A stretch of DNA of 64,000 nucleotides from Escherichia phage vB_EcoM_SQ17. Positions 4,194 through 45,761 of this stretch are shown in pieces (the stretch's first letter is position 1; every line of letters starts with the position of its first letter). A program made the translations under genes and the position numbers. Below the pieces are notes generated by a model that searched no databases, was not told the DNA's origin, and was given only the letters and a program-made list of their open reading frames with translations. The DNA lies in the sequence record MW882907, one strand, 5' to 3'.

Positions 4194-4460
4194 CTATGCA
4201 ATCTTAACTCGGCGGTTGATGATATCACGGAAGTCAATACGATTTTCTTGGATTTTCAGCCAGTTACCAGATTTGTCTTTGGTATGGGTAGAATATTCAC
4301 CGTTCCACCAGAAGTCAGTTTCATAAGCCAGGGCTTCGTATTTCTTAACCAATGCATTAACTGCATTACCGTTAGGATTGGTACCAAATTTTTCTACCAG
4401 AGCTTTGATGTCTTTGTCAAGGTTAGAAAGTGTGGTACGGATAAAGTTTAATTTGTTCAT
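4194..4460 (-). CDS. Hypothetical 88-aa protein, antisense between genes 23 and 24
   Basis: ORF-track ORF trimmed to an internal ATG that has a GAGGAGA ribosome-binding site; early-promoter motif upstream. Confidence 0.5.
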   Translation of the reverse strand: MNKLNFIRTTLSNLDKDIKALVEKFGTNPNGNAVNALVKKYEALAYETDFWWNGEYSTHTKDKSGNWLKIQENRIDFRDIINRRVKIA

Positions 4461-25236: not shown

Positions 25237-25438
25237 TTATAATTTCAATATCAGCCCAATGGCCGTATCCAGGTATACGGTCTTCGATAGATAAATTTCC
25301 GCCATTTTTAGGTATTTTAATTGACGTAACGTATGGTTCTAAACGGTTTTCTGAATAATATGGAAAAACGTCTGTTACACGATAAGTAACTTCGATCATT
25401 TCCGTACCAAACAATTTCCGGATTAATTTATTCAACAT
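25220..25438 (-). CDS. Hypothetical small protein
   Basis: 72-aa ORF in the compact 30.x-like array. Confidence 0.4.
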   Translation of the reverse strand: MLNKLIRKLFGTEMIEVTYRVTDVFPYYSENRLEPYVTSIKIPKNGGNLSIEDRIPGYGHWADIEIISVKDV

Positions 25439-25625
25439 GTTTCAACCCTTTAATAGGAGATAACTCTTTACCCATACGTATGTCAGAAGTCCCATCAACC
25501 CATTGAACAGCATACGCTTCATTGATAATTCCAGCAGTGGTTTTAAATTCACGGAGAACTTTAAAAATCATCCCAGGAATTCCAACACCTTTTAATTGAA
25601 CTGTTTGTGCTATTAAAAATTTCAT
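25428..25625 (-). CDS. Hypothetical small protein
   Basis: 65-aa ORF in the compact 30.x-like array. Confidence 0.4.
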   Translation of the reverse strand: MKFLIAQTVQLKGVGIPGMIFKVLREFKTTAGIINEAYAVQWVDGTSDIRMGKELSPIKGLKHVE

Positions 25626-25679: not shown

Positions 25680-25964
25680 CTACTTAACGAAATTAATTTC
25701 TACCGGATGAACAACAGGTTGAGCAGTGATATATTGAGTAATTGCTTTCAAGACTAGAGCTTCAGACCCAGGATTTTTCTCAACGAATTCACGTGCTTGG
25801 TTATGAGCTTCAAGTTCACTTAGTAAACCACTTCGTTGGCATCCACGGTCTTGAGTACCCTGTTCAGATAAAAAGACGACGATGTATTTTTCTTCATCGT
25901 CATACGGTTTAGACGGTTGAGCAAATGTTCCTTTACTTCCAAAAGGAGAGTTATGACGCCGCAC
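25680..25964 (-). CDS. Hypothetical ORF with no ATG start, overlapping the previous ORF by about 145 nt
   Basis: 94-aa protein-like ORF; ORF-track start is GTG with no ribosome-binding site; possible frameshifted continuation. Confidence 0.3.
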   Translation of the reverse strand: MRRHNSPFGSKGTFAQPSKPYDDEEKYIVVFLSEQGTQDRGCQRSGLLSELEAHNQAREFVEKNPGSEALVLKAITQYITAQPVVHPVEINFVK

Positions 25965-26296
25965 ACGCCGTGAGGAGTTTCAACCTTCGTATATTCGTGT
26001 GGACCATTTTTCTTAGTTTCTTGATGTGGAACTTCGTAGACCTTAGGGTTAGGACATTCAATAAAATGCTCATCTAAATCGGTCGAGAATATTAAAGTAA
26101 AACAATTACTAAATTTACCAACACCTGCCTGATAAATTTTACCTTCAGAAGTTCTAATTTCACAAACCGAGCCGGCATCAGTAACTTCTAAAACTTCAAA
26201 AGGCTCGATAAGGTCATATGAGAACATGTTTTTAAGGCGTGGAGTAATATCCCCATTTTTAAAATTCATTTTATAAAAAGTATTAACTTTAAACAT
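25820..26296 (-). CDS. Hypothetical protein; 3' part overlaps the next ORF in another frame
   Basis: 158-aa ORF; good upstream context (hairpin, then GAGGAAATT ATG). Confidence 0.45.
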   Translation of the reverse strand: MFKVNTFYKMNFKNGDITPRLKNMFSYDLIEPFEVLEVTDAGSVCEIRTSEGKIYQAGVGKFSNCFTLIFSTDLDEHFIECPNPKVYEVPHQETKKNGPHEYTKVETPHGVCGVITLLLEVKEHLLNRLNRMTMKKNTSSSFYLNRVLKTVDANEVVY

Positions 26297-26331
26297 AATT
26301 TCCTCAGTGGGAGCCGAAGCTCCCAGTTAAA

Positions 26332-26697
26332 TTAGATATCGAATTCGTTAAGAACTACATCAAAGATTGCTTCCAGGTGTTCAGGTTTAGCTCGGTTGCT
26401 CAGGATATGACGAATCCAAGTTTTAACCAGAAGTTTACGATTAACACCATTCCAGAAAGGATGAGTACCTAAATCACGTTGACGGAAATCATCATCTAAT
26501 GCAATTTTGAAGTTGGAACCTTCCATCGTGATTGAAACCGTGATGCCATTTTCAAATCGCATATAAACGTAATTAGGAGTCATATACTGCTCAATTTCGC
26601 ATACTGAGCCGTTATTATGCTTCCATAAGCAAATTGTATCGATAGAACCAGCAATACCGTTAGAAACATATTTACGTTCGAAGTTGATGTAGTTCAT
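26332..26697 (-). CDS. Hypothetical protein (T4 30.8-like position)
   Basis: 121-aa ORF preceded by an early-promoter motif. Confidence 0.5.
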   Translation of the reverse strand: MNYINFERKYVSNGIAGSIDTICLWKHNNGSVCEIEQYMTPNYVYMRFENGITVSITMEGSNFKIALDDDFRQRDLGTHPFWNGVNRKLLVKTWIRHILSNRAKPEHLEAIFDVVLNEFDI

Positions 26698-26804
26698 TTT
26701 ATTCTCCAGATGTTTAAGTTGTTTGTTGGTACAAGTCTATAGTAACACATCCTACAGGAGAGTAAACATCTTTTTTAAACTTTTTCTGCCCTAAACGCAC
26801 AAAA

Positions 26805-26827: not shown

Positions 26828-27007
26828 TTATGCAACAACCTTTCCAAAACGAGAAGCATCATCTCGAAGAACTGCACGTGCTCTGCGCATGATCTTCTCA
26901 ACTGTTTGATTAATACGAGAGTTCGACCCACGCTTGTATCCAGCGCGTTTAGAGGTACCATCAACTTTCTTTTCTACTGCTTTCTTTGCTTTAGCTTGTT
27001 TTGCCAT
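26828..27007 (-). CDS. Small basic protein, 59 aa (T4 30.9-like position)
   Basis: Hand-translated MAKQAKAKKAVEKKVDGTSKRAGYKRGSNSRINQTVEKIMRRARAVLRDDASRFGKVVA; reading checked against the overlapping plus-strand ORF. Confidence 0.4.
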   Translation of the reverse strand: MAKQAKAKKAVEKKVDGTSKRAGYKRGSNSRINQTVEKIMRRARAVLRDDASRFGKVVA

Positions 27008-39304: not shown

Positions 39305-39616
39305 TTATACCGCCATTTTAGCTTTGATAGCTGGATGTGATTCGTAATTTTTAAGAATAAAGTCTTTAGGACGAAGTTTTAATACATATTCGATTTGTTC
39401 TTCGGTTGATAGATGTCTAAATTTGTATGGTAATCCGTTAATAACTAATTCACACAGTTCTTTAGGCTCACGACGAAGAACTTCTTTGCATTGTTCTACA
39501 TGATTGCTGTAGATATGCGTGTTGCCGCCTGAGAACACTAAATCACCTGGGATAAGGTTACACATCTTCGCTACAATATGCGTCAAGGCAGCGTACGAGG
39601 CAATGTTGAACGGCAG
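39305..39616 (-). CDS. td: Thymidylate synthase, exon 2 (C-terminal 103 aa)
   Basis: Translation LPFNIASYAALTHIVAKM...GGNTHIYSNH is the thymidylate synthase C-terminus; joins to exon 1 ending ...VDVFLG. Confidence 0.85.
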   Translation of the reverse strand: MPFNIASYAALTHIVAKMCNLIPGDLVFSGGNTHIYSNHVEQCKEVLRREPKELCELVINGLPYKFRHLSTEEQIEYVLKLRPKDFILKNYESHPAIKAKMAV

Positions 39617-40632
39617 CATTATGTTCAGATAAGGTCGTTAATCTTATCCCGGAATTATATCCAGCTGCATGTCACCATGCAGAGCAGACTATATCTCCAA
39701 CTTGTTAAAGCAAGTTGTCTATCGTTTCGAGTCACTTGACCCTACTCCCTAAAGGGATAGTCGTTAGGCATTTATGTAGAACCAATTCCACTTATCAGAT
39801 TTTACACGGTAAGTAACTAATCCTGATGAAATTTCAAAATGTCTAGCCGCATCGGCTGCACATTCAAAAATAATCCCATCGCATGAAATCTTTTTGATGT
39901 TAGCTGGCTTTTTGCCTTTCATCTTTTCAGATAGTTTAGTTTTAGTTTTTTCTGAATGTTTGTGATTAAAGAACGGGTTATTTTCACCTGAACGTTTTCG
40001 GCACTTTCCACAAGTATCGGCCGAAGATGGTATGCGAACACCGCATTTACAAAACTTGTGGTTTTCTGGATTCCATCGGCCATTTTTACTTCCGTGTTTA
40101 CCATAAAGAGCTTTCCGACCATCAGGACCAAGCTTAAGCATCTTAGCTTTAACAGTTTCAGCTCGTTTCTTAGCAATTTCTTCTTTTAATGGATGATTTG
40201 AAAGCACATCGCCAAAAGACGCATCAGCAATATTATATCCATTAATTTTAGAATTTAGCTCTTTAATCCAAAAATTTTCTCGTTCAATAATCAAATCTTT
40301 CTCATATGGAATTTCTTCCAGTACAGAGCATTCAAAAACATTACCATGTTTATTAAAAGACCTTTGAAATTTTATAGAAGAGTGAACACCGTTTTCAAGG
40401 TCTTTAAAATGTCTCTTCCATCTTTTCTCAAAATCTTTAGCACTTCCAACATACACTTTACCGTTTAAAGTGTTTTTAATCTGATAAATTCCGCTTTTCA
40501 TAAACACCTCTTTTTATATAGAAGTATTTATTAAAGGGTAGTCCTACAATTTAGCACGGGATTGTCTACTAGAGAGGTCCCCCGTTTAGATAGATTACAA
40601 GTATAAGTCACCTTATACTTAGGCCTAAATTA
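39617..40632 (-). mobile_element. Group I self-splicing intron in td (1016 nt) carrying the I-TevI gene
   Basis: Interrupts td between ...VDVFLG and LPFNIAS...; intron starts TAATT and ends ...ATG; 1016 nt, the T4 td intron length as I recall it. Confidence 0.85.
39764..40501 (-). CDS. I-TevI GIY-YIG homing endonuclease (intron-encoded)
   Basis: 245 aa from the ATG (ORF-track start is an upstream GTG); MKSGIYQIKNTLNGKVYVGSAKDFEKRWKRH GIY-YIG motif. Confidence 0.9.
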   Translation of the reverse strand: MKSGIYQIKNTLNGKVYVGSAKDFEKRWKRHFKDLENGVHSSIKFQRSFNKHGNVFECSVLEEIPYEKDLIIERENFWIKELNSKINGYNIADASFGDVLSNHPLKEEIAKKRAETVKAKMLKLGPDGRKALYGKHGSKNGRWNPENHKFCKCGVRIPSSADTCGKCRKRSGENNPFFNHKHSEKTKTKLSEKMKGKKPANIKKISCDGIIFECAADAARHFEISSGLVTYRVKSDKWNWFYINA

Positions 40633-42031
<1,399 letters not shown>

Positions 42032-44254: not shown

Positions 44255-44589
44255 AATAAGAAATCTAACGTATTAGTTTTTTCACCACGAGCAACTGATG
44301 GGCGAAGCATGTTTTCGTCAATTGCTTCGCTTGTAATTTTTTCAACAATTCCTGTAGGAATAAATTTAGCAAATTGTGTTTCTGGAATAGAATTTTCTTC
44401 CAAGAAAGCAGTTGTTGCTTCTAAATAAGACATACCAAATTGTTCAACCATGGATTCGATAATGAATCCGTTTTCTTGTCGGTCAAGCAATTTAGCGATA
44501 TCATCTTTATCGTGTTTTACTGCTAATTCTTGTTCAGATAAACCGGCCTCATCAACCGGCTTAATATCACTTAGTGAAAACTGTGTCAT
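44251..44589 (-). CDS. 33: Late-transcription co-activator gp33
   Basis: 112 aa, same length as T4 gp33. Confidence 0.8.
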   Translation of the reverse strand: MTQFSLSDIKPVDEAGLSEQELAVKHDKDDIAKLLDRQENGFIIESMVEQFGMSYLEATTAFLEENSIPETQFAKFIPTGIVEKITSEAIDENMLRPSVARGEKTNTLDFLL

Positions 44590-44836
44590 AAAGCTCGACT
44601 ACCTCTTCGTTTTCAGCTTCAAATTGGTCACGAGCGTCTTTATGATAAAGAGCTAACAAACGATTAAACATTTTTCCATCAACACCAAGCTCTTCTTTAG
44701 CACGAGTACGAATGTCTTTAATCAGTTCATTATAACCAGAAATTTTAAGTTTGTTATCGGAAGCTTCCTTGACTAGTTTAGCCAGTTCTTCACCATGCAC
44801 ATCTTGATTAAATTCAACTGCTTCTTTCTTAGCCAT
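44567..44836 (-). CDS. dsbA: DsbA double-stranded DNA-binding protein
   Basis: ORF-track ORF trimmed to the ATG with a GAGG ribosome-binding site, giving 89 aa (MAKKEAVEF...). Confidence 0.7.
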   Translation of the reverse strand: MAKKEAVEFNQDVHGEELAKLVKEASDNKLKISGYNELIKDIRTRAKEELGVDGKMFNRLLALYHKDARDQFEAENEEVVELYDTVFTK

Positions 44837-44843
44837 GTTTACC

Positions 44844-45761
44844 TCAGAATTCATTAATTACACTTGTTAATTTAGAAAGACCAGATTTTACAAAGTACGA
44901 ATAAATCTTGCCTTTAGGTTGTGGTTTATATGAGTTATAATACTCTATAATGGTTGAAGCAATATTATCAGGGATATAATCAAAATCAATGAGAACCAAA
45001 TTTTCTTGATACCGTTTATATTCTTCTGCACTTAATAATACTTCAGCTTGAGAACGGTCATTGGCAATTGCTTCAATAATCGTTGTTTTCATGCTCGGAG
45101 TTCGTTCACCATCAACTCTGGTAAACCAGAAGTCGCCACGAACTCGAACAGATGCAACGCCGTCTTTACGGTCACCTTTAAGAATTTTAGTCATGCAATC
45201 AATTTCAGCAGAACCGTTCTTAATTTTAACCCATTTTTTCTGTGGTGGTGACCACTGTTTAACGTTAGGATATTTGTGTAATTGTGTAAAGTCACCATCT
45301 GATGCAACAATACATACCTTATGTCCAGCTAATGACAAATATTTAGTTAATACACCGATATGGTCATCCGCTTCATACTTGTCAATATCCATTACAACGT
45401 ATGGCATGTATTTCTTAATCTCATCAACAACTTGACGGAGCGCAGTAAAATATCCTTCCCAATCCCACTTTGAAGCTTCACGATCGGTTTTACGATTTTT
45501 CTTGTAGTAGTAAGCAAAGTCACGACGCCAATAACCTGAAGTAGCATTATCCATACACAATACAAATTTTGTATAGCCTTGCTTACGGAACATCACTACG
45601 TTTTTACGAATTGAATTCAAGATTACATGGCGAACCATCGGAACAGTAATTTTATCGCCGTCTTCAAAGTTGTTTAATGCGGCTGCTAATGCAATGTTAC
45701 TAAAGTCGGCAAGTGCAATACCTTCTTTGTAATCTTCATCCAACATCATTTCTAAATCCAT
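44844..45761 (-). CDS. rnh: RNase H (5'-3' exonuclease / flap endonuclease)
   Basis: 305 aa; MDLEMMLDEDYKEGIALADFSNIAL... matches my recollection of T4 RNase H. Confidence 0.9.
   Translation of the reverse strand: MDLEMMLDEDYKEGIALADFSNIALAAALNNFEDGDKITVPMVRHVILNSIRKNVVMFRKQGYTKFVLCMDNATSGYWRRDFAYYYKKNRKTDREASKWDWEGYFTALRQVVDEIKKYMPYVVMDIDKYEADDHIGVLTKYLSLAGHKVCIVASDGDFTQLHKYPNVKQWSPPQKKWVKIKNGSAEIDCMTKILKGDRKDGVASVRVRGDFWFTRVDGERTPSMKTTIIEAIANDRSQAEVLLSAEEYKRYQENLVLIDFDYIPDNIASTIIEYYNSYKPQPKGKIYSYFVKSGLSKLTSVINEF

Follow-up and report, generated by a model that had tools for sequence, protein, structure and literature searches.

The window analysed here, i.e. a stretch of 64,000 nucleotides from Escherichia phage vB_EcoM_SQ17 (MW882907), contains on its minus strand two open reading frames that overlap each other in different frames, and the question is whether they represent two genes, one gene decoded in two frames, or the remnant of a single gene broken by a frameshift. 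ORF1 (26296..25820, minus strand) covers 158 aa and starts with ATG; ORF2 (25964..25680, minus strand) covers 94 aa and starts with GTG. They share 145 nt (25820..25964), ORF2 being placed by the three-frame translation in the −1 (= +2) frame with respect to ORF1, and the span from the start of ORF1 to the stop of ORF2 (26296..25680) is 617 nt, which is not a multiple of three. The start context of ORF1 (26302..26324, minus strand), as read from the sequence, consists of a stem-loop GGGAGC-TTCG-GCTCCC at 26324..26309 and a Shine-Dalgarno sequence GAGG at 26305..26302, the latter followed by 5 nt to the ATG at 26296; the TuIa phage record (AJ621579) has the same two features, entered there as stem_loop and ribosome_binding_site. 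Concerning ORF2, there is no ATG anywhere in 25680..25964, and no Shine-Dalgarno-like motif was found in CTCCTCACGGC, the segment upstream of its GTG. The original prediction—two ORFs overlapping by about 145 nt, the 158-aa one with a good start context and the 94-aa one with neither an ATG nor a ribosome-binding site—thus describes the locus correctly, with both ORFs on the minus strand.

The two ORFs correspond to consecutive halves of one protein family, phrog_17531 of PHROGs, which has 204 positions. Residues 1-112 of ORF1 match its positions 1-112 (E 2.2e-77) and residues 1-94 of ORF2 match its positions 112-204 (E 8.5e-58), so that the family is covered end to end; judged by these scores, the matches of both ORFs to one and the same family are far beyond chance. 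A megablast search with the region retrieved about 110 Mosigvirus genomes with 94-98% identity. In the phages S143_2, ZQ3 and phi25-307 the position between the homologues of 30.7 and 30.5 is occupied by one annotated CDS of 615-618 nt (204-205 aa), and in TuIa (AJ621579, CAF21717.1) the gene is named 30.6A. The whole remnant in the window (25680..26296, minus strand, 617 nt), delimited by alignment to S143_2, ZQ3, phi25-307 and TuIa as well as to phrog_17531, is flanked on the same strand by 30.7 (26332..26697) and 30.5 (25428..25625), and the order 30.7 / 30.6A / 30.5 matches that in all four phages. The TuIa gp30.6A and its Mosigvirus orthologues share 96-98% identity with the window in both halves; their gene is uninterrupted, however, whereas the window copy is one base short and lies in two frames. 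Homology over the whole profile and synteny are thus both present, while a single frame of 204-205 codons is not, and the window copy of 30.6A is a disrupted member of phrog_17531. The idea that a frameshift has divided a single ancestral gene of about 200 aa is borne out by the single CDS of 204-205 aa found at the same position in the relatives; homologues with two independent overlapping genes, which would have spoken against it, were not seen, the homologues showing one gene.

It should be pointed out here that alignment to the T4 30.x proteins, suggested originally for locating the frame switch, would not have done so. T4 gene 30.6 (NP_049820.1, 95 aa) likewise lies between 30.7 and 30.5, but as a candidate orthologue it was rejected, its similarity being undetectable (BLASTP E 1.6); the true orthologue is the 30.6A of TuIa and Mosigvirus, and the difference between T4 30.6 and 30.6A reflects a non-homologous gene replacement in a variable region. 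TuIa itself is classed as Tequatrovirus, yet its 30.7 / 30.6A / 30.5 segment shares ~96% of its nucleotides with the Mosigvirus alleles. This resemblance, together with the non-homologous T4 30.6 in the same slot, suggests a recent horizontal exchange of the 30.7 / 30.6A / 30.5 cassette between the genera. A literature search for "30.6A" yielded only unrelated numeric matches, and the 30.7 protein of the window had no match in the assembly index.

The switch between the two frames, expected near 25950-25985, could be pinpointed by alignment to the relatives at 25964|25963. At this site the window has CACGGCGTG.TGCGGCGTC where the relatives have CACGGCGTGATGTGGCGTC; in codons, as given by the nucleotide alignments, CAC GGC GTG ATG TGG CGT CAT of the relatives has become CAC GGC GTG.TG CGG CGT CAT. 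The lesion (25961..25964, minus strand), established by pairwise alignments and by an alignment of 13 sequences, consists of a missing A—the first base of the codon for Met112, between 25964 and 25963—and of a T>C change at 25961, by which the conserved Trp113 would become Arg; neither change occurs in any other of the 13 aligned alleles. When one A is put back, a frame of 205 codons is restored, the product of which is 96-98.5% identical to the relatives and shares 96% identity with the protein P0001 over 100% of its length. Upstream of the lesion lies the authentic N-terminal coding part, recognized by its identity to homologues (codons 1-111, MFKVNTFY...ETPHGV, 25964..26296, minus strand), residues 1-111 being 100% identical to the protein of phage vB_EcoM_G2469 and 98% identical to that of phi25-307. 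It is followed in translation by the out-of-frame tail of ORF1 (25820..25963, minus strand), i.e. 47 codons (CGVITLLLEV...EVVY) with a premature TAA at 25822..25820, and this 47-residue tail has no counterpart in any homologue. ORF2 (25680..25964, minus strand) is the relic of codons 112-205, ending at the native stop TAG (25682..25680), and is 95.7% identical in tblastn to residues 112-204 of phi25-307. Since the sequence downstream of the lesion shows few differences from the nearest relative, S143_2, and no further stops, the event is a recent one.

The disruption is rare among the relatives. A 101-nt query across the site aligned with 102 nt in all 40 matches listed of 108, and a 61-nt canonical query spanned 61 nt (60 nt where the alignment begins at query base 2) in 60 sampled records with the exception of G2469 (62 nt). 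A 40-aa junction peptide was read in one frame in 112 of the 113 phage records, the single record dropped at a stricter threshold fitting G2469. The exact pattern of the site was found neither in IMG/VR nor in metagenome contigs; protein-guided scans of the collections added two intact alleles only, and such a scan of the GTDB genomes none. The intact gene of the relatives has a pN/pS of 0.16 overall and 0.13 in its C-terminal part, M112 and W113 are invariant in the relatives, and W113 is conserved even in remote homologues; the intact 30.6A of the relatives is thus under purifying selection.

With the lesion confined to one genome, an error of sequencing or assembly has to be considered, in which case the phage would carry an intact gene of 618 nt and the missing A would be an artefact. 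No assembly error is commoner than a single-base indel, the lesion occurs only here among more than 110 relatives, and two changes within 3 nt could mean a locally poor consensus. The context GTG|TGC, however, contains no homopolymer, and the SQ17 genome was obtained by Illumina NovaSeq sequencing and assembled with SPAdes into a single contig at 546x coverage (PMC9389114). The protein QVW29355.1 of this phage equals ORF1 exactly, and over 3558 nt, lesion included, the window has 100% identity with a contig of the Logan k-mer assembly of the run SRR27732229. Run and GenBank assembly may share one DNA preparation or even one data set, and the contig accordingly excludes an assembly artefact, albeit not a mutation fixed in one laboratory stock. 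In addition, when all 70 CDS of phi25-307 from this region were compared with the window by tblastn, 67 had a counterpart and two were absent, 30.6A being the only one split between frames. Based on the sequencing depth, the Logan match, the lack of a homopolymer and the absence of any other frame-split CDS, an artefact is improbable, and the best-supported reading is that the sequenced phage population really carries the mutation.

The second way to retain the full-length protein would be programmed recoding, i.e. a −1 ribosomal shift or RNA polymerase slippage within the overlap, and the layout at the locus—frames overlapping by 145 nt with the second one devoid of its own start signals—is indeed that of a frameshift-fused product. 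Programmed −1 frameshifting is exemplified by the tail assembly chaperone genes of tailed phages and by dnaX. Both these systems and the window have two overlapping frames, the second without start signals of its own, but the overlap in the window, unlike theirs, lacks a slippery heptamer, a stimulatory structure and a conserved arrangement. A script scan of 26000..25825 found no zero-frame X_XXY_YYZ heptamer, and the predicted RNA fold of 25990..25850 (−30.6 kcal/mol) hardly departs from the mean of shuffled sequences (−29.6; z = −0.30). The longest A and T runs are AAAAA (25891) and TTTTT (25874), neither of them at the switch, where a run of about 8 or more A or T was taken as the criterion for transcriptional slippage. 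The frame of ORF2 is, moreover, closed upstream by a TGA (25980..25982, minus strand), evident from both the frame-2 translation and the sequence, so that a −1 shift rebuilding the ancestral protein would be confined to the stretch from there to 25964; only 15 nt separate this TGA from the lesion, and they contain no shift-prone sequence. Nor is the two-frame layout conserved, 112 of the 113 relatives reading the site in one frame in otherwise near-identical sequence. Among the three options raised originally, it is thus the real mutation that is best supported, the sequencing indel being unlikely and programmed frameshifting—for which the proposed slippery heptamer and downstream structure were looked for and not found—being, from the sequence features examined, essentially excluded, with a barely appreciable likelihood that full-length protein would still be made.

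The possibility that the lesion has given rise to two proteins expressed on their own, that of ORF2 from the GTG at 25964, has to be seen in the light of the protein's architecture. As the exhaustive HMMER search shows, gp30.6A is modular. Its C-module, residues about 94-195, stands alone in short phage proteins of 124-152 aa: it is represented by CkP1_0226 of Citrobacter phage CkP1 (152 aa) and, in a shortened form, by the SP18 gp30.6A (ADO19562.1, 116 aa), both without the N-terminal module, the gene of SP18 being located between 30.9 and 30.8, i.e. outside the 30.6 slot. These two proteins share with residues about 125-190 of gp30.6A the common core Y-(I/V)-(L/V)-V-x-L-x-E-x-G-T-Q-D-R-G-C-Q-R-S-G-L ... 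N-P-G-x-E-A. Conversely, a protein of 146 aa (P0009) combines a counterpart of residues 1 to about 90 with another tail. Such modularity, together with a GTG present in the ORF2 frame exactly at the lesion, would fit a functional split. The lesion, however, does not occupy a linker position: it hits the motif G-x-W-(K/R)-H-N-S-P-(W/F)-G, conserved within the C-module that starts near residue 94, and its T>C would put Arg in place of the conserved Trp113. There is also no Shine-Dalgarno sequence ahead of the GTG, a start 145 nt inside ORF1 makes termination-reinitiation coupling impossible, and ORF2 has not been predicted by any gene caller, its exact sequence being missing from the protein collection. 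With ORF2 having no ribosome-binding site of its own and with single-gene homologues, the locus does not look like two independent genes, and two functional products are very unlikely.

Searches for the function of gp30.6A gave little. Pfam, NCBIfam and PADLOC contained no meaningful match, the sole match in a sequence profile search of the PDB was at chance level (E 0.043), and an exhaustive HMMER search of 1.84 billion representatives returned 7 matches only, all of them uncharacterised. The AlphaFold models are of low confidence (mean pLDDT 52 and 60), the confidently predicted part being only a beta-loop-helix-beta core at about residues 125-185; Foldseek retrieved nothing but family members from BFVD and nothing significant from the PDB.

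Based on the above results, it appears very probable that the Mosigvirus gene 30.6A has been broken in SQ17 by a real and recent frameshift mutation, an ordinary inactivation with no recoding signal. The sequences show directly that there was a single ancestral gene, where exactly it is broken, how rare the break is and that recoding signals are lacking; the course of events may be proposed as follows. The loss of the A and the adjacent T>C in codons 112-113 shift the frame, so that translation from the normal start would yield the authentic 111 residues followed by 47 out-of-frame residues and would stop 140 nt early. The other 93 codons would persist as the untranslated relic ORF2, too little time having passed for their decay, and since the lesion lies within the conserved C-terminal module, that module would be lost. 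The product of the SQ17 gene is thus likely to be a protein of 158 aa with an intact N-module and a 47-residue junk tail, in which the N-terminal module may still be able to fold and act. ORF2 is probably silent, given its lack of an ATG and of a Shine-Dalgarno sequence, the position of its GTG 145 nt inside ORF1 and the absence of a gene-caller record. The loss would presumably be tolerated because 30.6A is dispensable. Two points run counter to the inactivation reading: a deletion with a substitution 2 nt away is unusual for simple slippage, and a different frameshift in the same codon in phage G2469 hints at something non-random. The value of the case is mainly that of an annotation correction: the SQ17 entry QVW29355.1 ("hypothetical protein", 158 aa) needs a flag as frameshifted 30.6A, and ORF2 should not be called as a gene.

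Concerning the second truncated allele, in vB_EcoM_G2469 (MK327934, about 4330-4345) the Met112 codon has changed from ATG to AAAG, i.e. by a +1 insertion plus T>A, the gene reading GTG AAAG TGG CGA at the site; the CGT>CGA downstream is a natural polymorphism common to WFbE185. The resulting G2469_00213 (QBO62905.1) has 115 aa and stops after 4 junk codons, compared with 47 in the window. The same codon is thus broken after 111 identical residues, whereas the G2469 lesion is opposite in sign (+1) and on a different genetic background. The alleles of SQ17 and G2469 differ at 35 positions in the gene, and the two lesions are therefore independent.

These two alleles could be independent outcomes of a recurrent, non-random truncation, with codon 112 as a mutational or selective hot spot. 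In favour of this, the same codon is hit on a background differing at 35 positions, each lesion is complex, combining an indel with a neighbouring substitution, the two are the sole truncated forms among about 216 sequences, and the chance of two random lesions sharing one of 205 codons is ~0.5-1.5%, a post hoc estimate. Against it, no nearby template of at least 7 nt explains the new sequences, the stability of the hairpin goes up in SQ17 and down in G2469, no spacer-like match to the gene was found in E. coli genomes, and the sample size is two. The G2469 lesion may itself be an error, the study having used PacBio RSII or MiSeq with the platform per phage not stated (PMC6563267). A recurrent truncation is, all in all, unlikely, and it is quite doubtful that codon 112 is a true hot spot at which both lesions drop the C-module and keep the N-module. 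If it were, it would point to a sequence-specific insult, such as targeting by a nuclease or a defence system followed by escape, or, alternatively, to repeated counter-selection of the C-module, which might, for instance, set off a host abortive-infection system, and 30.6A could then merit testing for recurrent selected loss.

Two specific mechanisms were considered for these lesions and rejected. One is templated mutation, for which no direct or inverted copy of at least 7 nt was found within 1.5 kb, bar one chance 7-mer in G2469. The other is escape from CRISPR, with the ATG acting as a type I-E PAM by a mutated seed, under which G2469 would retain a functional AAG. A megablast search (28-nt word) of 5,426 complete E. 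coli genomes gave no match to 30.6A.

The case of 30.6A adds to the evidence that dispensable, modular and fast-turnover genes are found in the variable 30-rIII region of T4-type phages. In the same neighbourhood, gene 30.8, present with 372 nt in S143_2, ZQ3, phi25-307 and G2469, is absent from the window. The deletion site (26681..26784, minus strand) lies between 30.9 (26828..27007) and 30.7 (26332..26697), and here about 104 nt of the window are covered by both of the two blastn alignments to S143_2, which indicates that the relatives repeat an intergenic element of ~100 nt upstream of both 30.8 and 30.7. The repeated element consists of the stem-loop GGGAGACTTCGGTCTCCC and a promoter-like sequence, and one copy of it is left in the window; it is reminiscent of the promoter/stem-loop cassettes of T4-type phages. 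From this arrangement, 30.8 seems to have been deleted when the repeats recombined.

The comparison with phi25-307 also revealed some differences farther away. An 82-aa hypothetical ORF by the dihydrofolate reductase gene (phi25-307 41543-41791) is absent at about 41765..41771 of the window, and a free-standing homing endonuclease gene (phi25-307 44270-44953), which in phi25-307 sits between the helicase loader and the late-promoter regulator, is absent at about 44254. The thymidylate synthase gene (td), on the other hand, is split in the window (39305..41181, minus strand) into two exon-like parts, 41181..40633 and 39616..39308, with about 1016 nt between them. Rfam at the gathering threshold gave no group I intron in this region. 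The insert contains a 247-aa ORF (39764..40507) whose GIY-YIG, I-TevI zinc-finger and I-TevI DNA-binding domains (Pfam E 1.9e-31) mark the insert as a td intron carrying a homing endonuclease, like that of T4, whereas the td of the close relative phi25-307 is uninterrupted.
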